Under the pieces are notes generated by a model. The model saw only the letters and a list, made by a program, of their open reading frames with translations, searched no databases and had not been told where the DNA came from. A program made the translations under genes and the position numbers. This document shows, in pieces, positions 29,193 through 46,879 of a stretch of DNA of 60,360 nucleotides. Location of the stretch: positions 1-60,360 of the forward strand of contig CAYMXT010000002.1 of the NCBI GenBank assembly GCA_964394415.1, read 5' to 3'. This stretch comes from an uncultured Planctomycetales bacterium. GTDB taxonomy: Bacteria; Planctomycetota; Phycisphaerae; UBA1845; Fen-1342. Each line of letters starts with the position of its first letter. The first letter of the stretch is position 1.

Positions 29193-29498
29193 GTGAGACA
29201 CGAACACGGAACGGTCGGGGGCGCGGAGTATGAATGCGGGCGAAGCGGCTCGGGCGCTGCCTGCAAATGGGTTCCCGTAATTGACCCGGATACCTGTACT
29301 GGCTGCAATCTGTGCATCGAGGCCTGCGGCCCGAAGTGCCTGGAGCCGGTCGACGAAATCGCTGTACTCACGGCGCCCGGCGCCTGCGGCAGCGAGGAGC
29401 ACTGCATCCCGATGTGCGCATTCGACGCCATCCGCATGGAGTGGGTTGCGATGGACGGCGACCGCAGCCGTGGGAAGTGGCGAGATGCTCCGCCGTAG
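29193..29498 (+). CDS. 4Fe-4S dicluster ferredoxin-like protein
   Basis: GTG start after GATGGAGG. Cys motifs: CTGCNLCIEACGPKC and CGSEEHCIPMC. Confidence 0.7.
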   Translation: MRHEHGTVGGAEYECGRSGSGAACKWVPVIDPDTCTGCNLCIEACGPKCLEPVDEIAVLTAPGACGSEEHCIPMCAFDAIRMEWVAMDGDRSRGKWRDAPP

Positions 29499-29510
29499 CT
29501 GGACGGGGAA

Positions 29511-29957
29511 ATGGGCATGGCCACGAAGAACCTCGACATCCGCATCAAACGAATCTACGAGCCGCCGGACACATGCGACGGCCGTCGATTCCTGGTCGAT
29601 CGCCTCTGGCCGCGCGGTCTGCGGCGTGAAGACCTTCAGTTGGATGGATGGCTGAAGGACGTTGCGCCCAGCGATACGTTGCGCGCCTGGTTCGGGCATG
29701 ATCAGGATCGCTGGCAGGAGTTCCGCGAGCGCTACTTCGCCGAGCTCGACCGACATCCGGCGACTTGGGCCTCTCTGGCCGACATTGTTGCCACGGAAAC
29801 AGTGACGCTGCTCTTTGCCGCTCGCGACGAGCGGCACAACAACGCCGTGGCGCTGCGCGAGTACCTGCTCCGGAATTCGCAACGTCCACAACCGCAGACC
29901 GGCCGGCGGCGCAGCTTGGCCGGGTCATCCGACAAGTCTCAAGCGCGAGCGAGGTAA
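29511..29957 (+). CDS. DUF488 domain protein
   Basis: IKRIYEPPDTCDGRRFLVDRLWPRGLRREDLQLDGWLKDVAPSDTLRAWFGHD...TLLFAARDERHNNAVAL follows the DUF488 family pattern. Confidence 0.75.
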   Translation: MGMATKNLDIRIKRIYEPPDTCDGRRFLVDRLWPRGLRREDLQLDGWLKDVAPSDTLRAWFGHDQDRWQEFRERYFAELDRHPATWASLADIVATETVTLLFAARDERHNNAVALREYLLRNSQRPQPQTGRRRSLAGSSDKSQARAR

Positions 29958-29960
29958 CCG

Positions 29961-30356
29961 GTGCAGATCAATCAGAACGTCATCGCTGCATTCGCGGAAG
30001 CGCCCTTGTGGTACCTCGCCACGTGTGGAGAAGGAGGGCCGAACGTCGTCCCGGTCGGTTTCAAGTGGGTCGAGTACGACTGCCTACTCATCGCCGATCG
30101 CTTCTTCGGGAGGACCCGAGACGACCTTGGCCGCCGACGGCGAGTCGCCGTTTCAGTCGGGCTGCTCAATCCCAAGCGTGGGTTCCAAGTAAGAGCGACC
30201 GCGGAGGTGCATCGGCATGGACCTGTCCTCGAGCGCGTGTGCCAACTCTTGCGCTCCGGGGGTGTCGACGCAACGCCGTACGCCGCGTTGGAGATCCCGT
30301 TCGAGGAAACCTATGACCTGACCCCCGGTCCTGACGCTGGAAAACGCATCGCGTAG
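29961..30356 (+). CDS. pyridoxamine 5-prime-phosphate oxidase-like FMN-binding protein
   Basis: GTG start after GAGG. N-terminal pattern WYLATCGEGGPNVVPVGFKWVEYDCLLIAD is typical of the split-barrel PNPOx family. Last gene before the accessory block. Confidence 0.65.
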   Translation: MQINQNVIAAFAEAPLWYLATCGEGGPNVVPVGFKWVEYDCLLIADRFFGRTRDDLGRRRRVAVSVGLLNPKRGFQVRATAEVHRHGPVLERVCQLLRSGGVDATPYAALEIPFEETYDLTPGPDAGKRIA

Positions 30357-30767: not shown

Positions 30768-33700
30768 TCAGAAGAATGCCGTCCACACCACTACGGCAAC
30801 GCCGAAGGCGTGCGCAGCAATTGCCAGAATGTTCTTCGGTTTGCGTACGAAGCTAACGAGTTCGCGCTTGGCGCCATTCCTCGTCGCCCAACTTGCCAAT
30901 AGTTGCCCGGGTATCCCGCCAGCGGCGGCGAGCCGGTTGTTCAGTCGGATTGAGCCTACTCCGCTACGGATGAGAGCGATCTCGTAGTCCAGTAGCTCGT
31001 ACAGAAAACCAAATACCGAAACCGCCACGTAGTACCGCAGGCAAGCTCCCGCGAGACTGGTGATCGCCGGAAGCAGGCTGAGAAATGCGAGCGTCGTCAG
31101 CGTTCCCCACAGGAACCATCGGCGGCGTGCCTCCAGGTGATCGTGCGCGTGCGGCGCGAATACGACGCCGAGCCGGCGGCACAAACCAGTCAGTATTGCC
31201 GCCCCTCCGATGTCCAGCGCGCGAGAGAGCATCGCCGACGGAAGCATCAATCTCCTGGATTGACTGCGTGCGGCTGCTTGCAGCAGTATCGCGACCATCG
31301 CAGAGCCGGAAACCGCAGGTACGAGCAGGACTGCGCTAAACAGAACCGACAGAAACACCAGCTCTCGCGCAACAAAGGTGAAGCCGGCAAATAGCGACCA
31401 GTCCACCAGCTTGGTCGCGAATCGGGCAAACTGCGCTAGCGGCCAAAGCGGCACCCATCCTAGAAGAACAAGCAGCAGCGCGAATCTCGCTTGTGTAAGC
31501 ACCTTGACGATGGGCTCAGCGCACGAGCTCCACGCGCCCGGGAGGACCGCTGGCCGGGGCGCACATTCTGGAATGGTCAGAAGCGGAGACCAAATCCGCT
31601 CCGTTCGAAGCCGGACCTCGAATACGAGTCGCCAAAACGCGGCGAAGCCCACAGTCCACAGTAGCGTCGGCCCCAGCAACGGCACCCGGAACAAGAGCAC
31701 GGACGCCGCAAGAAGTCCCAGCAGCATCACGTCACCACGCCGCAGCTTCCAGATTCGCCTGACCCTGGTGTGCGTTACGGTGGGCGCTGGCTCTTCCCTC
31801 GACACTGCCTGGAGCCGTTCCGTTGCCGTCTTCAGCGCCTCCAGCGCCCGGGTCTCCGTTGGCGAACCGGAAGCGCCCGTCGTAGCCCATTCCGCGGGCA
31901 GATCGGGCGGCGCAGAGAACGCATCGAGCGACACGACACGGATCGGCGGCTCTGGCTGAGTGCGCAGAAGGCTCTCGGCCAGCGGGTCCTGCGTCGAGAC
32001 GCCGAGCCGGCCCAGAATCGCCAAGCGGCCGTTCACCACGTCCTGCGACAGACTCGGATCGAACGAGGATGGGTTCGTCGCCGCCACAGGCGGCAGTTCC
32101 AGCCAGGACGCTTGAAATACTCGAGGGCTTTTCAGGCGGTTGGCAAGCTCGCCCAACGCGCCAAAGAGGGCATCCGTGCTTCGTGCCTCGACGCAAACGA
32201 TTGCCTGACGGGGGGATTGGGTCGCGGCATCCGACGCGGGCGAATTGACCGAGAATCTCACGCGATCGCTCGACAGCGAGGACAGATCGTACTGCGGACC
32301 CGTGTCAAAATCGCAGGCAATGGACAGCCTACCGACGACACCCTCCGGCGCAAGCATCTGGAGGATCCGCTGCCTCAGCGATTCGACATCTTTTCTTGTC
32401 GTTGCAAAGAGCGACACACATCCGCTGCGGTCCTCGATGTCGTGAGATCCGCGGCAATCGCGGCTGAGCGCCTTGAGCCGCGCCTTCTGGTTCTGCCGAA
32501 ACTCGAATGGGGCGGAGCCGACGAGATCCTGAAAGGCATTCGGATCGCCGACGGGGACGACGTGAGCGACGAAGTGTGCATTGACGTCAACGGCTCGGCG
32601 TGTGTAATAGCCTTCAACGGTATCGCCATCTCGAAGACGCCGTCCCCCGGCCCACACGGGCAGGTCGGCTCCAGACACGGTCATTGCGGGAGCGCCTTTG
32701 GGAAAGTGGATTCGCCCCTTTACCACCGCTCCCGGGCGCAGATGCCCGACGTCGGGGGCGTTCGCGGGCACCTGACTCAGGACTAGCTGATCCGGCTTCT
32801 CCGCATCGGTGCCCAACACCTCCAGCGTCAGCCCCGTGTCTCGCTCCACGCGATTGAGATTGGAACGGCGCCGCGCGGGCAGGATCGCGACGCGATACGG
32901 CGGGAACGGCGATTCGCAGAGAACGTTGCCACTGCGGGGGAGCACCCTGATGACGCGCACCGCAACGCGCTGTCCCCGCATCGGCAGCGGCGCACAATCG
33001 AGCTGTTCACCGCGCTGAAGCAGCGCGAGCACGCGCGACTTTGTCGCCGGCTCCAGCGGCAGGTCGCGAATCGCCTCCCGCTGGGACTCGGACAATGCTT
33101 GCAGGAGCCGGAGCCTCGACGTCTCCGCGTCCCACCCGACTCCGTGCGAAGCGAGCGACTCCAGGTCGGCCGCCGAAGGCTCGTGCCGCAGGGTCTCAAA
33201 GGGGAGCGGTGTCCTGCGGCTAATGCGAAGCGCGACTGGCTCGGCGATCTTCAGGAGCGCGGCATCGAATCCGCCCATATTGATCCGCGCCAGCACGATG
33301 CAGCCGGCGCGCGGATCGCTGCCGCTGAGCAACACGGAGCATCCATCGGGACGCGTGCTGACCACGCGCCCCGCGGACGTTGCCGGGCCGTTCCGCAGCG
33401 CTTCGTGGACTACGCGATCCGCCAGGTGCCGAAGCGTGAGTTGGACTCGCGCTCCGGTGGTGTCGATCCTCGCGACGCGCGCGCGCAGGTCGGCGCCGAT
33501 CGGCACGAGCCGACACGCACCGCGCGCCTCGCCGACCGTGACGTCGTTGTCGCCGAGCACAACCCGGAGTCCCGTGCCCCGATGCACGACGTGCAGCTCG
33601 TCGTCTCCCTCGGGCGAGACCTCGTGTGAGGCCACGACGACGGCCACGTCCTCACCGGGGCGGTGCTGGCGCGCGAACGCGGCGAACGCTTCGCGCGAGC

Positions 33701-36700
33701 GGGCACACGTCAGGCGGACGGCGCCGGCGCGGTCATGGGCGAAGACCTCGGCCTGCACCTCGCCGCGAGCGCCCTCCGGCGCATCGACGATGACACCGAT
33801 CGCGACGACGCGTGAAAGCCGGCGCGCCGCGGTACGGCGCGGCCCTTCTGCGTTTGCCTCCGTAAGCTCCTCTGTAGTCTCGGTTTCGAGTTCGGGTTCG
33901 ACGTCCTTAATCGCTGGAAGCTCCGGCGCAAACAAAGGCTCGTCCTCGGGTTCCGCGACCTCGACGTCGTCACCGTCGGCTCGGGACGTGCCGTTTGAGT
34001 CGCGGGCTAACTCGCACATCGACTGCGCGGGCGTCCGCAGCCGAGCGCCAAGCTCTACGTGGCAGGCCCGGTCGCGCGCGTGCGAGATGACGCGGCACCA
34101 CACCACCGCTCCCACGGGATAGCGCGTTCGAGTCGCGATGGCGGCCTCCCGATCGACGAGGGCCCTATCGTCCACCGCGGCGGCGGAAAGCTCGGCGACC
34201 AGGCGTGACAGCTTTGCGCTGCTGAGGTCAGGCAATGCCCTTGCAAGGTTTGTGGGCACGACAACCGCGAAGTTCGTCTCGACCACGCGCAGCGCGGCGC
34301 CGCCACGCGTTCGCTCGCTGACACGGCGTGCGACGCTGACAAAAAGGTCGCACGGCCGCAGCGCGCACACAGACCCGCGCAATCGTCCGACGGTCGGCGC
34401 GCGATCCCGCGGCCGGACCGGAACGAACGGGGCCAGCGGATCGAGGTCCGGCCCGGAGGCGCGCTGGAAGACGTGACCGCGATTCGCCCACGCCGTCAGG
34501 ACGCGGATGCGGTCCACGTACGGCTGGTGAATCCGCCGATCCTCGCCTCCCTTGAGGTTCTTCGAGAGCGGCTTGAGCAGCTCGGTGCGGATCGACGCGA
34601 TCTCCTTGTCAAACGCATCCAGATTGACCCCGACGGAGTCCGCCCAGGCCGGCAATACGGCTCGGACGAACGCGCGGCGGCAGTCGCCGAGCCAGAGTTC
34701 CAGATCACGCATCGCACGCCGAGGGATTGGTACCTTGGTGGTGAGTTCATCCAAGTCCGCCACGCAGCGCGCCTGCCCCGCGGCAGCGCGAACGGCATCG
34801 GCCTGCCCGTCCAGCTTGTCGATGATCGCGTCGGCCATCGGTGGCAGCGCGGCCGCGTCCCAGGTGCGCGACCAGATTGCCTCATCGCCGTCGAACTCGT
34901 CGCGGTCGCCGACCTGCTCGTAGGCCGACCACAAGCCGATCGCGAACGCGACGTCGTCCTCAGCAGTTGCCAAGAGAGCATCGCGCAACGGGGACGAGCG
35001 CGGGTCGGCCGTCTCGGTTTCGGGCTCGAAGACTTTCGAACTTCGAACGTTTCGGGCGAGCCACGCGACGGTTGCCGCCATCTCGATCGCGCAGCAGTGC
35101 CGGTCGGCGAGAGACATGAGCAGCGCCACTTCCTGCGGCGGCAGGTTGCCGATGCTGCTGTAGGATTCGACGAAAGCCGCCTGCGGCGTAGGATCCCCGT
35201 CGTCGTCGATCAACCCCGACTCTTTCAAGCGATGGTGCGCGCGCAGCAGTTCCCGATCCAGTTCTTCGCGCTGGCTGTCGTCGGCCATCCAGGGGAAGTA
35301 GCGCGTCTCAACGCGTTCGACGCCGGCCTGGGCTGCCTTAAGCACTGCGGGCGTCATCTCCTCGAGGAGGATCTTGGGTTCCGAGTACGCCTCGAAGAGA
35401 GTCTCGTGCTGCTGCTCGCTGTAGAGCATCCAGGCGACACCGTTGGAGACACGGCCGACGCGGCCCCAGCGCTGCTTGCAGCCGGCTCGACTGTGGAGCC
35501 GCGGCGGCACTCCCGCCTGTTCTTTGCTTGTGTCCCAAATCTTCTGGCAGATGAGCCCCGTATCGATGGAGTGCTTGAGGTTTGGGAACGTCAAAGAAGT
35601 CTCAGCGTAATTGGTGGCAATGATGACGCGAAGCTTGCCTCCGTTTGAGCGGTTCTCCGTCGCGCCCTTCTGCTCGTTCGCGGGTGTGTCTCTGTGCAGG
35701 CCGATGAGATCGAGACTTGCGCGAAGTTCCGGGTGCTGCGCAAGCAGCTCCTCGATCCGTTCGATGCAGGCGGCGACGGACTTTTTGCTGTGCAGGAAGG
35801 CCAGCACGTCGCCGCGCATCTCAGGTGTCGCGAGATCAAGCGAATCCGTGACGGGGCCCAGCGGTGGAAGCGCGTGCATGCGCAGCACGATGTCGGCGAC
35901 CTTGGCGGCCAAGGGCTCGTGAATCGAATCGGCGAGCCGCTTGACGGCCTGCGGGTCGGTTTGATTCGCCACGTATGGCAGCAGGAATTCGCGTGGGTCC
36001 CGATAGACTTTCTGATACTCGTGTTCCTTGAAGTAGCTGAACTCCTTGATCGCGGTTCGCTGGCCCTGTGGGAGGAAGCGATCGAAGTACGCCCGGAACG
36101 CCTCCGGATCGATCGTGGCGCTGGCGATGAGTATCTTTACGTGTGGATTGCGTGCCAGTGCCCGCACAAGCAGGGCCATGATGAAATCGATATTCAAGCT
36201 GCGTTCGTGCGCCTCGTCGATCACGACGAGTCCCATGCGGTGCAGTAGTTCCTGGGTCAGCCACGAGACGACGGTCCCGTCGGTTACGTAGCGCAGACTG
36301 GTCTCCCAGTCCGAATACGGGTTATCCTTAAAGCGATACCCATAGAACTGCCGCGCACCGACGGCGCACCCCACCAGCTCGCCAGCGACGAAGAACGGCG
36401 TGTCACGCGTTGACTTCACGCGCGGCTGCGTGATAAGGATCTGGCCATCGGGGTTGTACATCGCGCCGGAATCGCCGCCACCAGGCGGGAGCATGATGCG
36501 CATCGGGATGTAGGTTGACTTTCCCGCGCCGGTCTTTGCGATCGCCAGCGCAACGCGGACCGACGGATCGCTCAGCAGTTCGTGGAACTCGAGTAGCTCG
36601 GAGTCCTTGACCGCGAATCTGCCCTCAGGAATCGGACGGCCGCACCGGCGGGACATGTACTCGACCGTCGCATGCGGCAGGAATCCCAGCGCCGAGTGCG

Positions 36701-36899
36701 ACGCGGCCGCTTTGCCGTCGGTGCTCTCGAGCAGCGTGGCCTCGAACGGCAGGTAGCGAAGTGGTCGTCGCGCGGAGGCTTCGCAGCCTGGGCACAGTTC
36801 CGGTAGCCCACGCATTCCCGCGCGCCGAGCGGCGACAACGTGCTGCGAGAACGTCTGGGGCTCCCGGCACCCAGCGCAGTGGAACGTCCACTCAAGCAT
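30768..36899 (-). CDS. giant DEAH/RHA (HrpA-like) helicase with an N-terminal Zn-ribbon, a long beta-rich middle region and a C-terminal multi-TM domain
   Basis: Motifs in order: AKTGAGKST, TQPRV, TDGTVV, DEAHERSLNIDF, SAT, ATNYAETSLTFP, QRWGRVGR. Two CxxC pairs at the N-terminus. The last ~320 aa hold 8-9 hydrophobic helices. ATG 36899 overlaps the upstream stop (ATGCTTGA). Confidence 0.85.
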   Translation of the reverse strand: MLEWTFHCAGCREPQTFSQHVVAARRAGMRGLPELCPGCEASARRPLRYLPFEATLLESTDGKAAASHSALGFLPHATVEYMSRRCGRPIPEGRFAVKDSELLEFHELLSDPSVRVALAIAKTGAGKSTYIPMRIMLPPGGGDSGAMYNPDGQILITQPRVKSTRDTPFFVAGELVGCAVGARQFYGYRFKDNPYSDWETSLRYVTDGTVVSWLTQELLHRMGLVVIDEAHERSLNIDFIMALLVRALARNPHVKILIASATIDPEAFRAYFDRFLPQGQRTAIKEFSYFKEHEYQKVYRDPREFLLPYVANQTDPQAVKRLADSIHEPLAAKVADIVLRMHALPPLGPVTDSLDLATPEMRGDVLAFLHSKKSVAACIERIEELLAQHPELRASLDLIGLHRDTPANEQKGATENRSNGGKLRVIIATNYAETSLTFPNLKHSIDTGLICQKIWDTSKEQAGVPPRLHSRAGCKQRWGRVGRVSNGVAWMLYSEQQHETLFEAYSEPKILLEEMTPAVLKAAQAGVERVETRYFPWMADDSQREELDRELLRAHHRLKESGLIDDDGDPTPQAAFVESYSSIGNLPPQEVALLMSLADRHCCAIEMAATVAWLARNVRSSKVFEPETETADPRSSPLRDALLATAEDDVAFAIGLWSAYEQVGDRDEFDGDEAIWSRTWDAAALPPMADAIIDKLDGQADAVRAAAGQARCVADLDELTTKVPIPRRAMRDLELWLGDCRRAFVRAVLPAWADSVGVNLDAFDKEIASIRTELLKPLSKNLKGGEDRRIHQPYVDRIRVLTAWANRGHVFQRASGPDLDPLAPFVPVRPRDRAPTVGRLRGSVCALRPCDLFVSVARRVSERTRGGAALRVVETNFAVVVPTNLARALPDLSSAKLSRLVAELSAAAVDDRALVDREAAIATRTRYPVGAVVWCRVISHARDRACHVELGARLRTPAQSMCELARDSNGTSRADGDDVEVAEPEDEPLFAPELPAIKDVEPELETETTEELTEANAEGPRRTAARRLSRVVAIGVIVDAPEGARGEVQAEVFAHDRAGAVRLTCARSREAFAAFARQHRPGEDVAVVVASHEVSPEGDDELHVVHRGTGLRVVLGDNDVTVGEARGACRLVPIGADLRARVARIDTTGARVQLTLRHLADRVVHEALRNGPATSAGRVVSTRPDGCSVLLSGSDPRAGCIVLARINMGGFDAALLKIAEPVALRISRRTPLPFETLRHEPSAADLESLASHGVGWDAETSRLRLLQALSESQREAIRDLPLEPATKSRVLALLQRGEQLDCAPLPMRGQRVAVRVIRVLPRSGNVLCESPFPPYRVAILPARRRSNLNRVERDTGLTLEVLGTDAEKPDQLVLSQVPANAPDVGHLRPGAVVKGRIHFPKGAPAMTVSGADLPVWAGGRRLRDGDTVEGYYTRRAVDVNAHFVAHVVPVGDPNAFQDLVGSAPFEFRQNQKARLKALSRDCRGSHDIEDRSGCVSLFATTRKDVESLRQRILQMLAPEGVVGRLSIACDFDTGPQYDLSSLSSDRVRFSVNSPASDAATQSPRQAIVCVEARSTDALFGALGELANRLKSPRVFQASWLELPPVAATNPSSFDPSLSQDVVNGRLAILGRLGVSTQDPLAESLLRTQPEPPIRVVSLDAFSAPPDLPAEWATTGASGSPTETRALEALKTATERLQAVSREEPAPTVTHTRVRRIWKLRRGDVMLLGLLAASVLLFRVPLLGPTLLWTVGFAAFWRLVFEVRLRTERIWSPLLTIPECAPRPAVLPGAWSSCAEPIVKVLTQARFALLLVLLGWVPLWPLAQFARFATKLVDWSLFAGFTFVARELVFLSVLFSAVLLVPAVSGSAMVAILLQAAARSQSRRLMLPSAMLSRALDIGGAAILTGLCRRLGVVFAPHAHDHLEARRRWFLWGTLTTLAFLSLLPAITSLAGACLRYYVAVSVFGFLYELLDYEIALIRSGVGSIRLNNRLAAAGGIPGQLLASWATRNGAKRELVSFVRKPKNILAIAAHAFGVAVVVWTAFF

Positions 36900-38250
36900 G
36901 CTCGTCTCCTGTCGCCGCCGACGCCGGCCAGACCGGTCCATGGGTCGCCGGCCCGTTTTCCTGCTCGTACACCGGGGTAACGCGCAGCCACGGCCCCGGG
37001 TGGTCCGTAAAGCTGATTCGGCGCTCGAACCAGCGCGCCAACCGCGCCAGGTGTGGCCAGCGAACCGAGACCCGCTCCCACCACACGCGCAACAGCGACA
37101 CGGGCCGCTGCGACTCGAGGATTGTGTGGATCGCAGCGCGGTAGAAGCCGACCACAGCGGCTTCGAGTCCAGTGTGGTGCAGATAGACCATGACCCGCCG
37201 ACCGCCGTACGTCACCCGCAACTCGCGCAGCAGCGTCAAGCCACGCTCGAAACAAATGCGGTCCTGTGCATCCATGGGCAGGTTGCCGGTCGCCTCGGCG
37301 TTCGTCAGGTAGGCGCGCTCCACATTGACGTCCATATGAACGTGTCGCATGCTGATCAGCGCCACATGTAGCTCGTGGTCCGCCTTCCACGCGGCCGGTG
37401 CCCGTTCGGCACACCTCAGCGGAAATCCCGGAGCCGGTGCCCCGCAGCCATACACCACCGGCACGTCCACCCGCAGTTCTCCGCGCGGCCGTAGGATTTC
37501 CTCCGCAAGCACGTCCGTGAGCGTCGGATGGTCCTGGCGCAGTGCATCGATCACACCGCCATGCTCGATCGCCGCCCGTACACGCCGCCGGCAGAGCTCC
37601 TTTTTCCGCTGGAAGCCCGCCTCGCGACTCGCCCGGGTGCCGGCGGCGCGCTCGCGCGCCTCGATCTCGAGCATGTGAAGAGCGGTCTCCCACTCGGACT
37701 CGATCGCGACGTGATCGGCCTGGTCGGGCGCAGGGCGCGCCGGTGCGGCCCCGTCACGCTGGTCGGTGAGAGCGGGTAGTTCGAGCAGGCCGCACCCGCT
37801 CGGCTGCGCCACCGACTCGATGAACTGCAACATCGCCTGAATGTCCCGGTCTCCGGTCCGCTCGGCATCGAGCGCGGCCAGCGATAACTCGTCGACCATA
37901 TCTGCCACCTGTCCTGGCTCCGTCAGGCAGCGCCCCAGCCAGCGCGGGCGGTTGGCCGCGTTACGCGCCGCAAGGTGGCCGAGCAGGTCGAGATACCCTC
38001 TACCGATGCAGACCGATTGCCCCAGGCGGGCATCGTATCGGCTCGACGCGGGGACGATGTCATCGAGTCGCTGAAGAAGCCCGTGGATGCGCCGGCGGTC
38101 ATTCAGCGGATTCACGTGTTTGCCGAGATGACGGACGGCGACCCGCAGCTCCGACAGCGTGCGGTGGAGCTCGTCGGAACCGGTCTCAGCCGGTTCAAAC
38201 AGCACCGCCGGCAGCGCGAACAGCCGCAGCTGAGGCGCGCGCGGTTTCAT
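36892..38250 (-). CDS. hypothetical protein, translationally coupled to the helicase gene
   Basis: 452-aa ORF. Its ATG overlaps the upstream stop (ATGA, 38247-38250) and its stop overlaps the helicase ATG. Composition is non-repetitive. No motif recognised. Confidence 0.7.
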   Translation of the reverse strand: MKPRAPQLRLFALPAVLFEPAETGSDELHRTLSELRVAVRHLGKHVNPLNDRRRIHGLLQRLDDIVPASSRYDARLGQSVCIGRGYLDLLGHLAARNAANRPRWLGRCLTEPGQVADMVDELSLAALDAERTGDRDIQAMLQFIESVAQPSGCGLLELPALTDQRDGAAPARPAPDQADHVAIESEWETALHMLEIEARERAAGTRASREAGFQRKKELCRRRVRAAIEHGGVIDALRQDHPTLTDVLAEEILRPRGELRVDVPVVYGCGAPAPGFPLRCAERAPAAWKADHELHVALISMRHVHMDVNVERAYLTNAEATGNLPMDAQDRICFERGLTLLRELRVTYGGRRVMVYLHHTGLEAAVVGFYRAAIHTILESQRPVSLLRVWWERVSVRWPHLARLARWFERRISFTDHPGPWLRVTPVYEQENGPATHGPVWPASAATGDEHA

Positions 38251-39482
38251 GGGCGAACACTCTGCATGCGTGTGAACTTGTCGAGCACGCGACCGCTCAG
38301 TTCGGCCACCGACACGGGGGCGACGATGAGGCCGGCACCAGCGGCTCTCACGTCCGCGAGAACCGCGCTTCGCCGTGCCAGCGGAACTTGCCGAAAGTCA
38401 TTGGTCACCACCACGACGCGTGTCGGCTGCGCAGCGCCCCCGGCGGGGCATTCGTCGAGAAGCGCGCCGGCACCCGCATCCGCGCCGAACTGGGCGGCCG
38501 ATCGCGCGACGAAGGACGTGCGAATCGTGGCACCGGCAGCGAGCATCTCCGATGGTGCGCAGATCGTTTCTTCCGGCCAACGCATGGCGGTCAGCAGGTG
38601 ATACTCGCGCACGAACGGTGGTGCGCTGGTTGTGACGCGGAAGGAGGGTTCATCCGGCGTTCGAAACGCGGAGGCCAGGGCCTCCGGTGTCGTCGGTACG
38701 GCCGGCGCGCGGAGCAGAGCGTCGAACACGCTGGCCAGCGCGATCGGTCGTGCATACTGAACGCGCGTTCGATCGAATAGCGGCGCGGCATCCGGGCAGG
38801 ACGCCAGCAGCCAGGCCGGGGCCGGGCACCAGGAGATCGCCGCATCGAGTTCCGCGGCGCTCCAAACTCCTGCGTGCATCAGGAAAGCGAGCCTTCCGAG
38901 CGAGCAACGACCCCGCAGGATCCCATTCTCGGCGGCCTGACGAAGCGCGGGTGCTGCCTCGGCGAGACGCCACAGCAGTTGCTCGCCCTCGACCGGTCCG
39001 ATCGCGCGGCGACGCAGGTTCGGAAGCTCGACGCCCAACTCACCCGCGAGCGTGACGATCGGCTGCGGAATCTCGTCGTTGAAGCTCGCAGCGATCATGG
39101 TGCATCGCTTGCACGCCTCGGCAAGCGTGAAGGTGAGGACCGCCCGCCACGCGGCTCGCCGCGGCAAGCTCGGTCCGTCGACCGCGTGGAGGGCATCTAC
39201 CTCCAGGCACCCGAGCTCCTTGCGGTTGCGCAAGGCAACGAAACCGATGAGGGCCCCGTCCGAGGTCAGCCGAAACGGTCGCCAGTTGCTATGGCGCGGC
39301 GCCTTGCTGTCTGGATCATCATGTTCAAACCTGAACTGGCTGGGATCAGAGATGCGCCGCTCGATCCGCTTCAGCGCCGAAGCCAGTGCATCCCCGCCAG
39401 CCGTGGTCGAGGACGTGTTGGGTGTCAGGCGCAGCAGGTCTTTCTTCGTGAAGAAGGTCCAGCGACTGATAATGCTTTGCAT
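38247..39482 (-). CDS. hypothetical protein, first gene of the helicase operon
   Basis: ATG 39482 lies ~8 nt after GGAGGG (the ORF extends to GTG 39563, which has no usable spacing). Only a weak GNAT-like stretch: LIGFVALRNRKELGCLEVDALHAV. No firm motif. Confidence 0.65.
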   Translation of the reverse strand: MQSIISRWTFFTKKDLLRLTPNTSSTTAGGDALASALKRIERRISDPSQFRFEHDDPDSKAPRHSNWRPFRLTSDGALIGFVALRNRKELGCLEVDALHAVDGPSLPRRAAWRAVLTFTLAEACKRCTMIAASFNDEIPQPIVTLAGELGVELPNLRRRAIGPVEGEQLLWRLAEAAPALRQAAENGILRGRCSLGRLAFLMHAGVWSAAELDAAISWCPAPAWLLASCPDAAPLFDRTRVQYARPIALASVFDALLRAPAVPTTPEALASAFRTPDEPSFRVTTSAPPFVREYHLLTAMRWPEETICAPSEMLAAGATIRTSFVARSAAQFGADAGAGALLDECPAGGAAQPTRVVVVTNDFRQVPLARRSAVLADVRAAGAGLIVAPVSVAELSGRVLDKFTRMQSVRP

Positions 39483-39719
39483 CTCGCATCCCTCCGCCAC
39501 GTCCGGTGCGGCGACCTTCCCGACCGACGCTGCGGCAGGGTCCGTCAACCGTGATCCGACCACTCCTTAGATACCGCCGCCGCGAACCACCCATCCGGCC
39601 GTTTCGGACGATCGGGCCGATTCCAGTGCTCGCGCCGGCAGCGCGCAAGTCAGCAGAAGCTCATCCATTGGGCCCCTATTCTCGCCCGGTTGCTCCGCAT
39701 CGGTCAAGCCATCTGTCGA

Positions 39720-40660: not shown

Positions 40661-41032
40661 ATGACGAGACTGGGTGACATTCTCTCGACCGCCTTGGCAA
40701 ACAGTGCGCAGGTGGGCCAGGTCCACTGGGTTTCGAACTGCTTCTGGCCCGACCTCTTCGAGCGGGCGAAGTCACGGTCACATCCCGGCTTGGTTTGCAG
40801 CGCAAGATCGGAAGTGGCCCCGGGTACGAGCAAGCAGTGCTCGAATCGACCGAGGAAGTGGCGAGAGTTCACGTTGCAGCACTCGCTCGACGGGGTGCGC
40901 GGTACGACGTTCTTCCTCGGCCTTCGCAGGTACGTCGCGGCGTCGGAGCTCGGAAGGATCATGGGTTGGCTGCACGCCCACGATCGCGCGCGACTGGACC
41001 AAATCCTGAGTTCGGAGCGTTCGAATTCGTGA
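40661..41032 (+). CDS. hypothetical protein, weakly PemK/MazF-like
   Basis: GQVHWVSN...KSRSHPGLVCS and the C-terminal LGRIMGWLHAHDRARLDQIL follow the MazF/PemK barrel-plus-helix pattern when compared by eye with the bona fide MazF at 53945-54277. First gene of the plus-strand operon. Confidence 0.5.
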   Translation: MTRLGDILSTALANSAQVGQVHWVSNCFWPDLFERAKSRSHPGLVCSARSEVAPGTSKQCSNRPRKWREFTLQHSLDGVRGTTFFLGLRRYVAASELGRIMGWLHAHDRARLDQILSSERSNS

Positions 41033-41976
41033 TTGCGTCTGTGGACGAAATCGCGGCGTGTGTGTCACGGCTTTCGAGCTCGTCGGTCTTCCACGAGTCA
41101 GATTGGCCCACGCTTTTCGCGCTCGTGCGGCAAACGGTCGCGAGTCTGCCTGCCGCTCTTTACGGACCCGACTCCCAGATCACGAGGCACTGCTCGTGGA
41201 CCGGCAACGATGTGACCATCGCTACCCAGGACTGGATCATGGAGTTCCTGGGTTGTCAGGCAGTCGATGAGAGATTCTCACCCAGCGCCATCGTCCGCCT
41301 AGCTCGGTTTTCGATCCGCTGGTTTGTGATCGACTCCTATGGCCGTCCGACTCCGCGGAGAGATTGCTACGGAGCTCTGACGGAGGCGCTCCGGGACTTT
41401 CCCGGTCTTATCGGCGGCCACCGCGAAGTCAGCTTCGAGCCGCAGGCACCGTTCCCATTCGATCCGGACGGCAACCGTTCGGCCAGAAGCCGTTGGGTCA
41501 CGACGGCGGAAGTACGGCGCGCCCTGGCCATGATCGCCGAGCAACAACCGACCGGCTGGACGAAGGGCCAGCTTGCGGACGTGCTCTGTCGGTGGGCCGG
41601 TGTTCCTGGCGATCCGATCTCGCTGGCATCGAGCGCGGTCCCTCTCCCGTCTCATTGCCCTGCTGACGAGCTGGATTCCACCGAAGCCGCTCGCGCGCAC
41701 GCGAACGCCGTGGGCGCGCAACTGGACGAAGCGGAGCGCGAGATTCTGCCATATCTGATCCCTGTCCAGGACGGAAAGATGACGTTGGCCGATGCCTCGA
41801 AGAAATGGAAGATCCCGGTTTCGACCTTGCACGATCGGGCGCAACGGCTTCGAGGTAAGATTCGTGCCCTCTCTGCGGGAACTAAAATCGGGGGGCCCGC
41901 GGCCGCCAGAGCGTTTCTGGAAGCGCTTTTGGAGCATAGCGCCGGAATCTTGCCCTCCGAAGAGGATATGAAGTAG
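41029..41976 (+). CDS. hypothetical protein with a C-terminal sigma-70 region 4 / LuxR-like HTH
   Basis: GTG 41029 overlaps the upstream stop (GTGA). C-terminus: LDEAEREILPYLIPVQDGKMTLADASKKWKIPVSTLHDRAQRLRGKIRAL. Confidence 0.6.
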   Translation: MIASVDEIAACVSRLSSSSVFHESDWPTLFALVRQTVASLPAALYGPDSQITRHCSWTGNDVTIATQDWIMEFLGCQAVDERFSPSAIVRLARFSIRWFVIDSYGRPTPRRDCYGALTEALRDFPGLIGGHREVSFEPQAPFPFDPDGNRSARSRWVTTAEVRRALAMIAEQQPTGWTKGQLADVLCRWAGVPGDPISLASSAVPLPSHCPADELDSTEAARAHANAVGAQLDEAEREILPYLIPVQDGKMTLADASKKWKIPVSTLHDRAQRLRGKIRALSAGTKIGGPAAARAFLEALLEHSAGILPSEEDMK

Positions 41977-41993
41977 AAAGCGGAGTGTGCGCA

Positions 41994-44525
41994 ATGGAAC
42001 CCATCCCGCCCTGCCCGGAGTCGCTCTTGGGGCTGCGCAGGCCGCTCGCGACGCGACTCCCGACCGTCAATCTGGGCGTGCGGCCGGGCACGATCTGGGA
42101 GGCGCGCGCGCCGGACGGCGGATTGTTTGAGTTCCTGCTGCCCGCTTGCCCAGAGAACGAAGATGAAAACCCGAGGGATTTCGTTCGAGCGATTCCGCTC
42201 ACGGGCGCGCTCCGGCTGATGGACCGCGGGGACGCAGCGATCTCGAACGAGGCCGCACAACGACCGTGCGTTGCTCATAGCTGGCTTGAGGGGCCGATCC
42301 TCGTTTCGGCGCTCGAGCGCTGTATTGGCCACATTTCAGAGACGAGTGCCGGCGAAGTGGCGCGGGCGCGGGAGGTTTCCGACATTGAGGCAAGCGATGG
42401 GGCCGTGGCCGAGTTCCGGCGGGCGCTCGCCGAGCAGATCGATCCCTACTATGACGCTTGTTGGGGCGAGATCCTCGGCGATGCGGGCAGGACCGGGCAG
42501 CCGGAGGAGGCAGCGCGCGTCATAACGCTGGAGCGGCTCAGGCGGGAACTGCCGCGAACCGGGATCCGCCTCGCGGCCGCACCGGCGACGGAGGATACCG
42601 CCCCCTCGCAGGAGGAGCTGTTGCACTGGATGCGCTGGATCAGCTTCGCCGGAACCGCCCGAGCCGCGACCGACCTGCTCGCACAGCTTCCGCAGGACGT
42701 CCCGGTTGCGGAGCGTCAACTACTCGAACGCGCTGCGCAGGGAAACCCGCCGATGCGTCGGGTGCACGTTTGCTGGCTGCTGCTGGTGCTTCGCGGCGCG
42801 GACGCGGAGATTCTCCGGCCGGCGGTCGCGGTGGCCGCGCGTCTACAGCCGTTCGCGCCGCACGAGCCAACGCCGAGCATCGGAGGGCTGAGCGCGGACG
42901 AGCGCTTTCGTGCTGCGGTCCAGGAGGCCCTTCAACTCGGCGGCGAACTCGACCTGGACGGCAAGCGGCGGTGGGCGCTCGACGGGCTGGGCGTAGTACC
43001 GCAAGGAGGTTCCATCGCGACGCTCGAAGGAGGGTCCGCTGGTCTGGCAGTATACGCCAACCTCTGCTGGGCGCGCCGTGGTGTTCGGCCGGAAGCGCAG
43101 GTTGCGCTCACCGGCGTCCTTGAGGGCGGACGGTTTCTGGCCGTAAACGACATACACCGAAAGCTCGATGCGGCGCGCCGGGCCGGGGTCGAATGGGTAG
43201 TGGCCGTCGACCAGCGCGCCGCCGTAGCAAGCAACGAGCGCGATCGGCTCATTCTCCTGCCCGACCGGCTGCCCGCTATGGACGCGCTCGGGCTTGTTGA
43301 GGCGGAGCTCGCGCGCGCCGGCGTGCGGATGGTTCCCGACGCCGAGCGCTGGGATGAGTGGATTGGCTACGCGCGCAAGGTGGCGAGTCAGCACGGCGAT
43401 TTGCCGGGCAGTCGAATCCTGCCGCTAGCGCGGCTCTGGAAGAGCACCCCGGCCGGCCCGAACGAGATCGAACATCGGAAACGGGATACGACCATCGCAA
43501 TCCTCAAGGCTCGTGCAGTCTACGCACAGGGTTTCACGCTCAAGGCGCTTGGAGATTTCGACGTCGCGCGAGCACGTCTCGCCGACAGTTGGGGGCTCAT
43601 CGATCCGGAGTTGCGGTGGATGTTCTTCGCCTCGTACTTCCACTGCACCGGCCAATGGGGAGACACGCTGCCGGCGGAACTTCAGGCCATCGCCGATCGA
43701 ATGGTGCAGGAGGACGAAGACATCGACGATGAGTCGGCGGTCCATCGGTATGGCGGATATGCCGACTGGTCGCGGTACTCCGCGGCACAGTGTGAAAACC
43801 CAGACGAACGCGCGGCGCGCTTCCGCCGAATCGAGGAGATTTACCTGACGCGCGTGCGTCCGCGGCAGGAACGGCTTGATCAGATCAAGGGCAGGTCCGG
43901 CGGGCTGAATCGGACGGACACGCAACTCGCGTCGCTGTATCTGGTGTGGGGCAGACTCGACCAGGCTGAGCAGCGGCTAGCGCCGCTGCTCGACTTGGAG
44001 CGAACGCTGGCCGCGCGACAGCTCGAGCGGCCGGACACATGGAGATTCGCGGCGGGGCATGCGCATGTCTGGCTTTCGCTGCGGAAGTTATCCGGCCTGC
44101 CGATCGACGAGGGCTGGCTCGATTGGCGGCAGCAGACGCGGGCCGTGCTGGAGGCGGCCGCAAGCCCGCGCAGCTACCACGCGTTATTCGCAGCGATCGA
44201 GCGATCGGCGCTGATCCTGGACCCGGGAGACTCGATTGCCCGCGCGGAGCGCGCTATGGCGCAGCTCGCCGATGCGTCAAAGGAAAATCCGGGGCGCGCG
44301 CAACTGGCCGCTTGGAGTTATGCGGTAGCAGCGACGGCGCACTTCCGAATTCAAGGACTGGACTGGCGTCCGTGGGCGGACCGCGTGGAGGAACATGTCG
44401 CCCAATTGGCACCCTGGTATCGACAGATGGATCGTGTCCGCCGACTGAGCAGCGAATTGACGGACGACCCACCGCCGTCGACCCAGTCAGTCTTCTCAAA
44501 GGCAATGACGTTTACGCTCTTTTGA
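41994..44525 (+). CDS. Lon (S16) protease-domain protein with an unknown N-terminal region and a C-terminal helical/TPR-like repeat region
   Basis: EGGSAGLAVYANL...VALTGVLEGGRFLAVNDIHRKLDAARRAGVEWVV aligns by eye to the E. coli Lon segment DGPSAGIAM...[31 protein letters not shown]. The Ser codon is 43035-43037 and the Lys codon 43161-43163. ATG 41994 follows GAAAGCGGAG. Confidence 0.75.
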   Translation: MEPIPPCPESLLGLRRPLATRLPTVNLGVRPGTIWEARAPDGGLFEFLLPACPENEDENPRDFVRAIPLTGALRLMDRGDAAISNEAAQRPCVAHSWLEGPILVSALERCIGHISETSAGEVARAREVSDIEASDGAVAEFRRALAEQIDPYYDACWGEILGDAGRTGQPEEAARVITLERLRRELPRTGIRLAAAPATEDTAPSQEELLHWMRWISFAGTARAATDLLAQLPQDVPVAERQLLERAAQGNPPMRRVHVCWLLLVLRGADAEILRPAVAVAARLQPFAPHEPTPSIGGLSADERFRAAVQEALQLGGELDLDGKRRWALDGLGVVPQGGSIATLEGGSAGLAVYANLCWARRGVRPEAQVALTGVLEGGRFLAVNDIHRKLDAARRAGVEWVVAVDQRAAVASNERDRLILLPDRLPAMDALGLVEAELARAGVRMVPDAERWDEWIGYARKVASQHGDLPGSRILPLARLWKSTPAGPNEIEHRKRDTTIAILKARAVYAQGFTLKALGDFDVARARLADSWGLIDPELRWMFFASYFHCTGQWGDTLPAELQAIADRMVQEDEDIDDESAVHRYGGYADWSRYSAAQCENPDERAARFRRIEEIYLTRVRPRQERLDQIKGRSGGLNRTDTQLASLYLVWGRLDQAEQRLAPLLDLERTLAARQLERPDTWRFAAGHAHVWLSLRKLSGLPIDEGWLDWRQQTRAVLEAAASPRSYHALFAAIERSALILDPGDSIARAERAMAQLADASKENPGRAQLAAWSYAVAATAHFRIQGLDWRPWADRVEEHVAQLAPWYRQMDRVRRLSSELTDDPPPSTQSVFSKAMTFTLF

Positions 44526-45001
44526 GCACCCACGGAGTCTCGCGCATTCTCATACAGGTCGATGCCTGCTTCATAGAAGACGGCCGGTACGTGTGGTCGC
44601 CGGAGCAGCGCGACCGCGCATGGGCCGACTGCTTCGCACGCCTTGAAGCCGCACTAGAGTCCGGCCGCTACTCGCTGGCGGCGCTAACGGTCGGAGTCCC
44701 CGCGTCCGGCAAGTCGACGTACGCCGCCGCGAACAACCACGAAGACATCGTGATCTTCGATGCTGTCTTCTCGACGCGACAGTTTCGCGAACGCGCTATC
44801 AATATCGCGCGGCGATTCGCTGTCCCGATCGAGGCTTGGTGGATGGATACGCCGCTAGAGGAGTGCCTGCGGCGCAACAAGCAGCGAGATGTCGATCGAC
44901 GCATACCAGAGGATGCGCTGCGACAATTCCACAACAACTTGTCGCGCGAACCCCCTAACGAGGCCGAGGGGTTCGTTCTGGTGCGCAAAGTGCAGCAGTA
45001 G
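44522..45001 (+). CDS. small P-loop kinase (AAA_33 / polynucleotide-kinase / zeta-like)
   Basis: Walker A is GVPASGKST. DAVF acts as a Walker B-like segment, and a lid-like RRNKQRDVDRRIPEDAL follows. A TTG start at 44522 overlaps the upstream stop (TTGA); the start is uncertain. Confidence 0.6.
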   Translation: MSTHGVSRILIQVDACFIEDGRYVWSPEQRDRAWADCFARLEAALESGRYSLAALTVGVPASGKSTYAAANNHEDIVIFDAVFSTRQFRERAINIARRFAVPIEAWWMDTPLEECLRRNKQRDVDRRIPEDALRQFHNNLSREPPNEAEGFVLVRKVQQ

Positions 45002-45083
45002 GTCGGTGCCATGATGTGTGGCCTGAAATACTTATTGATAACAGCCTTCCGTTCTTTCGTTGACGCGTTCGCAGGGCATGTCA

Positions 45084-45488
45084 CTAGCCGCAGCCTTTGC
45101 AGCCAGGCTTTGATGGTGCCGTGCGAGGCGATGGCGCACTGCCAGCTCTGTTCAATAGAGGCACCGCGGTTCCCGAGTATGCCGCCGCCGTCAGCAAACA
45201 TGCAGCCGGGTCGGACAGACCGCGCGTGAGTACGAACACCGCTAACGCGGTCCAGAAGGTCTGGCACGCGAAGCAGCCCATGAAGTAGGTGAAGGCTCGC
45301 CAGCCAAGAGAGGTGCGGGCAAGCTGCTGGAGCTCTCGGCGCTTCGTCTCGATCTCGGCGTCCGTGAGCGGCTGCCTGGCCGCGTGGGGGGAGCGGCGGG
45401 CAACGTCCTCGTCCCACCTGGCGCGGTTGTTGATCTCCCAGTTCAGCCGGTTCATCCGCTGCCGACGCGGAGCGTCGCGCAGCGACAA
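45084..45488 (-). CDS. hypothetical membrane protein (DUF1360-like CxxC helix)
   Basis: Contains WRAFTYFMGCFACQTFWTALAVFVLT plus a second hydrophobic helix. Ends in CKGCG. Convergent with the kinase gene. Confidence 0.45.
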   Translation of the reverse strand: MSLRDAPRRQRMNRLNWEINNRARWDEDVARRSPHAARQPLTDAEIETKRRELQQLARTSLGWRAFTYFMGCFACQTFWTALAVFVLTRGLSDPAACLLTAAAYSGTAVPLLNRAGSAPSPRTAPSKPGCKGCG

Positions 45489-45699
45489 CGCCCGAGTCCG
45501 TCTGGCTGCACCGGAGCCTCGCGGAGGGATACGTGGATCGCACGCCTTTCCGTGACTCTCCCACGCAATCCGTCCGTCTGAAAAGCCCGGAGCACCAGCG
45601 ACTTGCGTACGGCGGCGTACGGGCTAATTGCTGGATGATTGCGGGTCGGGCGACTCGGCCCCGCAATCGGAAGGGCGGGAATTGGGATCCGGATTGGGG

Positions 45700-45965
45700 T
45701 CGGGATTGGGTTTTGGATCGACTCCTCGACCCAAATCGGCGTGCCGTAACTCCTTGAAGGGACAGCATTTCGGATGCAAGCTTGAGCCGGATTCGGGTCA
45801 GGATTTGGGTTTTGGACCGATTCCCTGAGCCAAAGCGCCTCGGCACAAGCCCTTGAAAAGGACAGCAATTCGGGTGTGGGACTCCGGCCGGCTTTGGCTC
45901 AGAAATTGGGTCTTGGCCCGATTCCCTGAGCCAATCGGCAATCGCTCCAGGGGCCGCCCACAAGG
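45700..45965. repeat. degenerate tandem repeat, about three units of 99-101 nt
   Basis: Unit starts TTGGGTTTTGGA at 45706 and 45805, and TTGGGTCTTGGC at 45906. Shared cores are CGATTCCCTGAGCCAA and CCTTGAA(G/A)GGACAGCA(T/A)TTCGG. An internal 12-bp inverted repeat pairs 45825-45836 with 45891-45902. Confidence 0.7.
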
Positions 45966-46023
45966 CGAGCGCCGGGTCAGGAGCCTGGCGCGCCCAGAAA
46001 GACCGTAGTCAGGACTGCCTGCG

Positions 46024-46443
46024 TCAGTCGCCGACCTGGTACTTGGCGCCGCGAACACTGAAAGCCCAGCGCGTTCCTTCCAGCACATCAGTGACAAACT
46101 GCGTCATGGCCGGATTCTCCAAGGCACCGCTGACGTAGGCGATTGCGTTGCCGTCGGTCTTGTCCATGCTGGCGTGAATGACCTGATCTGCATCGCACAC
46201 GACGGCCAGATTCGGGTTGTGGGTGACGATGAACACTTGCCGGCGGCGGCGGGCCTCTTTGATGCACTCCACGAGTACCTTCGCGACCGTGTGGTTGTCG
46301 AGGTTTCCCTCGGGCTGGTCGATGACGAGGGGCATGACCGACTCAGCGCGACGGAGCTTGTGAACGAGCGCGAGCTGCGCAGCCGGGGCGAGGCGCTGGC
46401 GCGCAGCGAGGCTTTGAGAGAACCGGCACAGCCTCTGCATGAA
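46024..46443 (-). pseudogene. C-terminal fragment of an SMC/ABC-type (AAA_15/23-like) ATPase
   Basis: Only the Walker B/D-loop/H-loop end is present: PLVIDQPEGNLDNHTV...RRQVFIVTHNPNLAVVCDADQVIH. There is no Walker A or N-terminal body upstream. The fragment ends where the plus-strand gene at 46457 begins. Confidence 0.6.
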
Positions 46444-46456
46444 CGGGTGGTTGAAT

Positions 46457-46879
46457 ATGAGCGCTAACGCTAACTCGATTCTGCAACGGTATGGTCTGCG
46501 GGACAACGACACGGTTGCCAACGGTGCGGGAAGGAGTGAAGCCGACGTTACGGAAGATCTCGGCGCCTTCGGCTGGCTGCGCGGCATTCGCGACCGGGCG
46601 ACGAGTCTGGAGCTTCGCAGGAAGGACGGCCACATCCTGGCTGTCGGCTACGGCTACATGGACAAGGCGGAGTTCGACCCGTCGGAGGGGATTACGCTCT
46701 CCGTCGCCGGGCAGAAGATCCGCATCAAGGGCCGCAATCTCAACGCCGAAGTCCGGCCGACGGTGCGGCTCTTCGAGGGCATCGCTCGTAACCGCGTGCC
46801 GTGGATTCAGGAGGCGGACCGGGCCGCCGGTATACAAGCCGGCGACCGGGAGACGGTCGTTGATGCCATCGAATGGTGA
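46457..46879 (+). CDS. hypothetical protein (looks mobile-element associated)
   Basis: ATG 46457 follows GGTGG. Non-repetitive sequence: DLGAFGWLRGIRDRATSLELRRKDGHILAVGYGYM...RLFEGIARNRVPWIQEAD. Family not identified. Confidence 0.5.
   Translation: MSANANSILQRYGLRDNDTVANGAGRSEADVTEDLGAFGWLRGIRDRATSLELRRKDGHILAVGYGYMDKAEFDPSEGITLSVAGQKIRIKGRNLNAEVRPTVRLFEGIARNRVPWIQEADRAAGIQAGDRETVVDAIEW

Follow-up and report, generated by a model that had tools for sequence, protein, structure and literature searches.

The locus and its three genes

The window, as we call the whole 60,360-nucleotide (nt) stretch of DNA analysed here, belongs to contig CAYMXT010000002.1 of an uncultured Planctomycetales bacterium and carries on its minus strand three consecutive genes: the open reading frames (ORFs) ORF1 (38247..39482) and ORF2 (36892..38250), and the gene of a giant helicase (30768..36899). 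A sequence-only reading of this DNA had suggested that the two ORFs encode unassigned partners of an unusual motor; the computational analysis reported here places them in two large protein families that recur beside related helicases. ORF1 encodes 411 amino acids (aa) from its ATG, or 438 aa from an alternative GTG start at 39563, and ORF2 encodes 452 aa. The helicase has 2043 aa from ATG 36899, and a second in-frame ATG at 36941 would extend it to a 2057-aa form (ORF 30768-36941). The start at 36899 is favoured because the family N-terminus is conserved from that methionine (consensus MMxxEWxxxCKDC, with C8, C11 and C36 invariant) and because the gene call in the protein collection is 2043 aa long.

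The ends of the three genes interlock. ORF1 and ORF2 share a stop/start ATGA (38247..38250, minus strand), and ORF2 overlaps the helicase gene by ATGCTTGA (36892..36899, minus strand), with the ORF2 stop at 36894-36892 and the helicase ATG at 36899. Checked on the sequence, the ORF coordinates and both overlaps proved to be as the sequence-only reading had given them, and so did a Shine-Dalgarno-like GGAGGG (39490..39495, minus strand), which lies 7 nt 5' of the ORF1 ATG at 39482. A promoter-like TTGACC-18 nt-GAGAAT is found upstream of ORF1 (39678..39707, minus strand); it is the sole match between 30 and 41 kb, where 1.0 would be expected by chance, and is a low-confidence assignment, suggestive by position only. 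No Rfam family was found between 29 and 42 kb of the window.

The guanine-plus-cytosine (GC) content at codon positions 1/2/3 is 0.69/0.56/0.76 in ORF1 (438-aa form from GTG 39563), 0.75/0.49/0.79 in ORF2 and 0.70/0.50/0.77 in the helicase gene (2057-aa form). All three follow the usual coding pattern of 65% GC sequence, in line with the normal composition already ascribed to both ORFs. The same reading had found no assignable motif in either protein, and indeed searches of Pfam, PADLOC and NCBIfam with ORF1 and ORF2 returned no match. From their overlaps, ORF1, ORF2 and the helicase gene are read as one translationally coupled unit.

Two protein families in a conserved gene order

A word-indexed search of 5.8 billion proteins with ORF1 retrieved nothing but ORF1 itself, and the same search with ORF2 retrieved three remote homologues with 41% identity across the C-terminal third. 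The contigs of these three homologues carry genes for proteins of ~220 aa, ~497 aa, 350 aa (the ORF2 homologue) and ~2,050-2,100 aa, with overlapping ends, the last being helicases with DEAD, Helicase_C, S1 and Jag_N domains. ORF1 matches the 497-aa upstream protein weakly (BLASTP E=1e-6, 21% identity over 212 aa), and a profile built from ORF1 and three such ~497-aa proteins recovered six further clusters. The family of ORF1 was thus found because of synteny with distant ORF2 homologues, the direct ORF1 search having failed. We coined the names A for the upstream partner family (~490 aa) and B for the middle one (340-460 aa). Exhaustive HMMER searching with the ORF2 alignment gives 497 clusters of family B at 50% identity with E<=1e-3, of which 385 reach E<=1e-10.

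Profiles made with the window protein left out still recognise it. The family A profile matches ORF1 at E=3.8e-40 over profile positions 135-512 of 513, and the family B profile matches ORF2 at E=4.4e-61 over positions 5-380, so that ORF2 is a full-length member of B and ORF1 a divergent member of A whose alignment begins only at position 135. No other window ORF matched either profile.

Gene order was studied in the 71 related loci fetched, which include two plasmids and a single archaeon and cover at least 10 phyla. Immediately 5' of B, 66-69 of them have a family A gene, and ~65 (first search) have a helicase of the same sub-family (1,200-2,150 aa) immediately 3' of B; contig ends, masked stretches, frameshifted copies and deletion variants make up the loci without a helicase call after B. 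The A/B junction is the same 4-nt overlap as in the window in 50 of 61 unique loci, and at the B/helicase junction the genes overlap or are separated by less than 25 nt in nearly all. The order A-B-helicase is essentially invariant. Since this order recurs in 71 other loci, and the 4-nt overlap in most of the unique ones, the arrangement in the window goes beyond chance. Comparison of close relatives gives ratios of nonsynonymous to synonymous substitution rates (dN/dS) of 0.09-0.14 in family A and 0.20 in family B. Purifying selection acts on both at family level, and ORF1 and ORF2 are genuine genes.

The proposal that unknown partners coupled to an unusual motor amount to an undescribed multi-gene system is supported on each of the three points on which it had been said to stand or fall: both families are conserved as coding sequence, their homologues are practically always found beside the helicase, and neither matches a housekeeping family in Pfam, NCBIfam, PADLOC or PDB sequences. 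Searches of Pfam, NCBIfam, PADLOC, PDB sequences, RefSeq products and the literature gave no name for A or B, and no description of the A-B-helicase module was found in the literature searched. Judging by sequence comparison, we regard A-B-helicase as a new gene system, only the helicase core belonging to a known superfamily. What the sequence-only reading, confined to the window, did not include are the size of these families and their spread across phyla, a fourth gene and a SUKH domain in relatives, and a membrane domain in the window helicase.

The partner proteins

Family A can be divided into an N-terminal part of variable occurrence and a conserved core. SUKH (SMI1/KNR4) domains are matched by Pfam at the N-terminus of 11 of 48 A relatives (best 3e-15), and the only match of the family A profile to PDB sequences is a weak one to the SUKH protein YobK, in the N-terminal part that ORF1 does not have. 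ORF1 itself has no Pfam match to SUKH. The remainder of A (~380 aa) matches nothing. The sequence-only reading had pointed to a GNAT-like stretch in ORF1; neither ORF1 nor any of its 48 relatives has a Pfam or NCBIfam acetyltransferase match, and the stretch in question turns out to be the conserved core of the family. The conserved positions of this core are mostly hydrophobic residues, proline and arginine, with no obvious catalytic set, which is why A is assigned a putative adaptor role. SUKH proteins are known as immunity proteins of polymorphic toxin systems (PMC3113570), from which the module differs in that ORF1 is devoid of the domain and no secreted polymorphic toxin gene is present.

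Conservation in family B concentrates in the C-terminal lobe, where a domain of invariant residues corresponds to aa 241-442 of ORF2 (36925..37530, minus strand). All invariant B residues are present in ORF2, namely Y267, R302, H303, D307, N317, D330, G361, A365, Y370, P426 and W441. The C-terminal stretch RVMVYLHHTGLEAAVVGFYRA, singled out earlier in ORF2, is the signature motif of the family, HHTGLEAAVVGFYRA (aa 358-372; 37135..37179, minus strand), and served as the pattern of the locus scan described below. The AlphaFold2 model of ORF2, computed from a 50-sequence alignment with a mean predicted local distance difference test (pLDDT) score of 85.7, shows two alpha/beta lobes joined via long helices. 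The N-terminal half had been described as helical; long helices are indeed predicted there, together with mixed alpha/beta structure, so that it is not purely helical.

When the PDB was searched with this model by Foldseek, the top of the list consisted almost entirely of weak matches to SAVED and CARF proteins, including Cap4 (6wam/6vm6), Cap5 (8fm1), SAVED-CHAT (8tl0), Cam1 (8t65) and a ring nuclease, over 200-280 columns. The matches are not significant (E 0.015-1, template modelling (TM) score 0.2-0.25, root-mean-square deviation 9-12 A). Furthermore, B differs from the SAVED and CARF proteins of CBASS and type III CRISPR systems in having neither sequence similarity to them nor a fused effector, and the module contains no cyclase. 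A sequence-profile search of the PDB with family B found nothing, and the viral structure library BFVD gave no meaningful match to the ORF2 model. Going by the predicted structure, a SAVED/CARF-like fold of B is a lead that we hold tentatively, at somewhat less than an even chance.

The helicase

The window helicase begins with a Zn-ribbon-like CxxC...CxxC element (C8, C11, C36 and C39; 36765..36899, minus strand), in which C8, C11 and C36 do not vary among 27 helicases of the family. The DEAH/RHA core follows at aa 92-662 (34914..36626, minus strand; Pfam DEAD and Helicase_C), and its motifs, Walker A GAGKS in GAGKST, DEAH in VIDEAHERS, SAT in ASAT, and QRWGRVGR, assign it to the DEAH/RHA group of superfamily 2. 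The core motif residues are invariant across the 27 helicases. The core is 29% identical to the helicase of a related locus (L001), and the middle region (aa 700-1250) and core of the window helicase are common to the Chloroflexota-type members. DEAD is recognised in 27/27 family helicases, S1 in 14/27 and KH in 13/27, and some carry Jag_N or extra Zn-ribbons. In the window helicase no S1 or KH domain is recognisable, a family-derived S1 profile giving marginal fragments only (E=0.007). Its C-terminus is instead a hydrophobic block (aa 1722-2043; 30771..31736, minus strand) with ~5-8 membrane segments predicted from hydropathy. None of the fetched loci yielded a homologue of the block, which is unique to the window locus. 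The helicase of a Dehalococcoidia locus (L065:10237-15420) ends in 3-4 hydrophobic segments of unrelated sequence, which suggests that membrane anchoring may have arisen more than once.

The closest well-known bacterial proteins are HrpA and HrpB, which share GxGKS/T, DEAH, SAT and QRxGRxGR with the module helicase (E. coli HrpA, PMC8325345). The NCBIfam models of both match RecA1, RecA2 and part of the next region, that is, the core only, and score far below their equivalog cut-offs: 155.4 against 722.75 bits for HrpA (TIGR01967) and 130.9 against 546.15 bits for HrpB (TIGR01970). In contrast to both, the module helicase adds the N-terminal Zn-ribbon, a long unique middle and S1/KH arrays (in the window, the membrane domain), and is obligatorily linked to two partner genes. 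We know of no such partner genes for HrpA or HrpB.

Some eukaryotic DEAH helicases join their core to S1 or KH modules and rely on cofactors, as Prp22/DHX8 with S1 and the G-patch-activated enzymes do; cofactor-steered DEAH helicases of eukaryotes also serve in antiviral RNA sensing. The module resembles those with S1 or KH modules in that its core is joined to oligonucleotide-binding-fold (OB) or KH modules for single-stranded RNA, and its activity would be expected to stand under the control of the partners. It differs in that neither A nor B shows homology to G-patch proteins, and in being a bacterial operon carried partly on mobile elements.

This domain composition gives rise to a serious rival explanation. 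The DEAH helicase and two cofactors could remodel RNA as a housekeeping or stress function, acting on ribosomal RNA, in mRNA decay or in RNA quality control, by analogy with G-patch-driven DEAH helicases or degradosome-type assemblies. S1, KH and Jag_N are domains typically met in general RNA metabolism, and the helicase core is HrpA/HrpB-like. We rate this explanation as unlikely, given the evidence set out in the next section.

Distribution and genomic context

A scan for the family B signature motif in one genome per GTDB species detected 61 loci among 185,579 species. They are scattered over Actinomycetota, Chloroflexota, Planctomycetota (anammox), Thermodesulfobacteriota, Alphaproteobacteria, Patescibacteria, Gemmatimonadota, Acidobacteriota and Bacteroidota, with one Methanomicrobiales archaeon. 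One metagenome-assembled genome holds two copies of the module (L040 and L059). Among 72,556 plasmid records, two carry it. One is the conjugative 68-kb plasmid pB of Paenarthrobacter, where the module follows directly after MobC, a relaxase and one more hypothetical gene, with a type IV coupling protein near; the other is a 560-kb linear plasmid of Streptomyces. On both, RefSeq names A and B "hypothetical protein" and the helicase "S1 RNA-binding domain-containing protein" or "helicase-related protein". The module is patchy over phyla and present on plasmids, and has been transferred between distant lineages.

Beyond the components of the module, conservation between lineages does not extend into the flanks. 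The 148 flanking ORFs sampled are a mixed set, with three tyrosine integrases, a transposase and ArdC-type genes. PADLOC gives ~15 matches in this set (raw count), such as ShosA, IetS, MADS components, PsyrA and a type II restriction enzyme. Individual metagenome loci have as neighbours GmrSD-type genes, a pair of HATPase and DruA-domain genes, or transposases.

These data bear on the housekeeping explanation from both sides. Many of the flanking genes are ordinary metabolic ones, small genomes of Patescibacteria hold the module in a conserved local context, and no PADLOC model matches it, all of which would suit a general role in RNA metabolism. Set against this are the sparse and patchy spread, the otherwise non-conserved flanks and the carriage on plasmids. 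The same holds for the duplicate copies in one genome and decayed copies elsewhere, for terminal domains and gene 0 (see below) that are swapped among lineages, and for the presence in some A relatives of SUKH, a family best known for immunity proteins.

A further explanation, which we regard as quite improbable, is that the module works on behalf of the mobile elements on which it is found, in plasmid establishment, in countering host defences or in nucleic-acid processing during transfer. Its position on pB near MobC, the relaxase and the type IV coupling protein, its presence on the Streptomyces linear plasmid, the integrase, ArdC-type and transposase genes in some flanks, and an integrase and ParB in the right flank of the window would all agree with such a service. 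However, plasmid carriage is as rare as stated above, most loci lie on large contigs of chromosomal origin and have no transfer genes in the neighbourhood, and no phage genome or viral contig carries the module.

Gene 0 and other optional parts

In most related loci a small gene on the same strand, here called gene 0, abuts A. It belongs to at least three families, of ~135-220 aa in Actinomycetota, ~290-380 aa in many phyla and ~155-170 aa in Patescibacteria, and further types are found in Chloroflexota. Examples are L001:5085-5759, L014:7559-8335, L060:8035-8499 and L074:~10068-10526. A common origin of the three families was considered and dropped, as hhalign detects no mutual similarity. 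Across these unrelated families, nearly all of the proteins begin with M-(G/A)-C or a sequence close to it (MGCGNN, MACGNN, MACGKPP, MGCT, MACSN, MGCSNF, MGCFL, MSQCCGK, MPxGCNL), and the M-(G/A)-C start is seen in more than 45 loci. The shared N-terminal cysteine could be a modification, docking or membrane-anchoring signal. In two of the families an invariant E...D...(D/E)xK pattern is, by motif inspection, restriction-endonuclease-like (PD-(D/E)xK). On the Paenarthrobacter ureafaciens plasmid pB (NZ_CP094491.1), RefSeq calls a 73-aa ORF on the opposite strand (L074:10209-10430) where gene 0 (MACGNNH...) sits, which suggests that annotation pipelines probably miss gene 0 systematically.

The window has no gene 0, either 5' of ORF1 or anywhere adjoining the module. 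Among the related loci, L011 has the B protein nearest to ORF2, and it likewise lacks gene 0 and the SUKH part, which suggests a genuine sub-type shared with the window. A coupling between the loss of SUKH and that of gene 0 was ruled out, since Patescibacteria, L016, L020 and L025 are without SUKH and have gene 0.

Directly 3' of the helicase, seven loci of anammox bacteria, Thermodesulfobacteriota and related lineages encode a ~740-aa protein with a weak DUF3800 match (E=7e-5) and traces resembling tetratricopeptide repeats (L014:16093-18336; L015:12402-14624; L043:13008-15215; also L019, L021 and L017). It may be an optional fifth component.

Several copies are reduced. In Ca. Loosdrechtia aerotolerans (L012:11420-13774) the helicase Zn-ribbon (137 aa) is fused to the ~740-aa downstream protein and the helicase body is gone, a deletion variant. 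Two Ktedonobacterales loci (L032:3418-7404 and L058:6183-10051) have a truncated B (~209 aa) and a helicase without the first ~550 profile positions, and in a Solirubrobacterales locus (L066) the helicase is broken into several frames; all three are reduced or decayed copies. A B-helicase fusion (P0034) was set aside as evidence of interaction, because RecA1 is missing and the protein is probably a deletion product or a chimera.

Such copies raise the question of whether the window ORFs are themselves a decaying, non-functional remnant of the module. ORF1 without its SUKH part and off-consensus at many positions, a missing gene 0 and a helicase without recognisable S1 or KH might be taken in that sense, as might the clearly decayed state of L012, L032, L058 and L066. 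We nevertheless consider a remnant extremely unlikely: the three long frames (411, 452 and 2043 aa) are intact with normal codon-position GC, the overlaps and ribosome-binding site are preserved, all invariant residues of A and B and all helicase motifs are kept, and L011 has the same reduced composition, suggesting a genuine sub-type.

A candidate conflict system

Taken with the explanations weighed above, the evidence makes it somewhat more probable than not that a widespread, unnamed RNA-helicase module has ORF1 as its A subunit and ORF2 as its B subunit, and that this module is a conflict system sensing RNA. Several features favour a conflict role: the spread is sparse and crosses phyla, plasmids carry the module, some copies are duplicated and others decayed, terminal domains are swapped, as is gene 0, some A proteins have a SUKH domain, and the context is in part that of a defence island.

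The putative conflict module could work as follows. A, B and the helicase would form a complex in which the helicase engages single-stranded RNA. B would act as a sensor of a small ligand or an RNA end, or as a regulator, a role suggested by its two alpha/beta lobes, the weak SAVED/CARF-like fold and the invariant polar cluster of R302, H303, D307, N317 and D330. A would be a non-catalytic adaptor, with a protein-binding SUKH domain in some relatives, and the gene 0 protein would provide the output in most lineages. The module would most likely serve in conflict, whether against phages, against plasmids or in RNA surveillance. The window copy would be a reduced variant without gene 0 and SUKH.

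Several observations weigh against this interpretation or narrow it. For ORF1, the AlphaFold2 model (7-sequence alignment, pLDDT 39) is unusable; the protein keeps the invariant residues of family A and departs from the consensus at many positions. For B, the ORF2 model has no Foldseek match in the PDB at E<=0.001, the best reaching E=0.015 with TM scores of 0.2-0.25, and an internal duplication of the SAVED type had to be dropped as support, hhalign giving a probability of 0.1% between the halves. Neither a CD-NTase nor Cas10, the enzymes that make the cyclic nucleotide signal for SAVED/CARF sensors, was found in the module or among its recurrent neighbours. The nuclease assignment of gene 0 is a motif-level lead, Pfam and PDB profile searches having returned no match, and in the window the presumed output gene is missing altogether. 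The ~320-aa multi-pass block at the end of the window helicase is predicted by hydropathy alone; that it may localise the complex or stand in for an effector is conjecture. The defence context is mixed, most flanking genes being ordinary. No close relatives of the window copy were found, and the dN/dS values given above are those of other family members. Finally, family B is absent from the phage genomes and viral contigs searched, which fits a host system and is otherwise neutral.

Large helicases in compact operons are familiar from anti-phage systems. Hachiman (HamAB), Druantia (DruE), Mokosh (MkoA) and DISARM (DrmA) likewise combine a very large superfamily 2 helicase with proteins of unknown fold and are patchily spread, and the module, too, sometimes lies beside defence genes or on mobile elements. 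It differs from them in having an RNA-type helicase, of the DEAH/RHA class and with S1/KH arrays, and in being a candidate for a role in defence. PADLOC-DB v2.0.0 contains no system model that matches A, B or the helicase, either in the window or in a second locus tested (L007).

A bolder version of the conflict interpretation sees here a new class of prokaryotic conflict system, in which RNA is sensed through an S1/KH-helicase, the system spreads horizontally among bacteria, one archaeon and plasmids, the gene 0 cysteine marks an undescribed bacterial modification or docking signal, and the membrane domain of the window helicase replaces the effector. We consider this combination possible, at rather less than an even chance.

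If the interpretation as an RNA-sensing conflict module holds, three or four families without a name in Pfam, NCBIfam, PADLOC or RefSeq would come together in one compact module found in hundreds of lineages. To our knowledge, no bacterial DEAH/RHA RNA helicase with dedicated, translationally coupled partners has been described before, and the module would be the first; it would offer a tractable bacterial counterpart to the cofactor-steered DEAH helicases of eukaryotes. At 7-10 kb it is small enough for transfer into a model host, and its conserved residues provide ready mutants. The M-(G/A)-C start on unrelated gene 0 proteins would be an unexplained signal in its own right. Even if the function lay in RNA housekeeping, two large families now labelled "hypothetical" would become known as "helicase cofactor" families.

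Flanks of the window module

Divergent from ORF1, on the plus strand, lie a gene for 393 aa (40795-41976), with a weak C-terminal helix-turn-helix and a weak match to PADLOC CARF3 (E=0.003), and one for 846 aa (41985-44525) with a weak Lon_C protease match (E=9e-5). As these two have no homologues beside the module in other loci, they may be a separate unknown pair. The adjoining 431-aa ORF on the minus strand (44668-45963), which has no family match, contains three copies of a 48-nt unit (45687-45934), spaced by ~100 nt and 67-100% identical.

To the left of the module (20557-30356) is a cluster for nitric-oxide and iron stress and cofactors, which encodes a PAS-hemerythrin, NnrS with DUF1858, a tryptophanase-like lyase, ScdA/hemerythrin, a B12 radical SAM protein with DUF4070, a hemerythrin, DUF488 and a PNPOx-like protein. 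Neither a tRNA in the window nor direct repeats bounding an island around the module were found. The right end (46000-60360) is island-like, with a GC content of 0.60-0.62 versus 0.66. It encodes several paralogous prepilin-type N_methyl proteins, whose genes have common 82-nt 5' ends (47705, 48821 and 50493) and whose number would hint at Planctomycetota. Also encoded there are a tyrosine integrase (52036-53052), ParB (57507-58391) and a fragment of an AAA_21/AbiEii-like ATPase (46024-46635).

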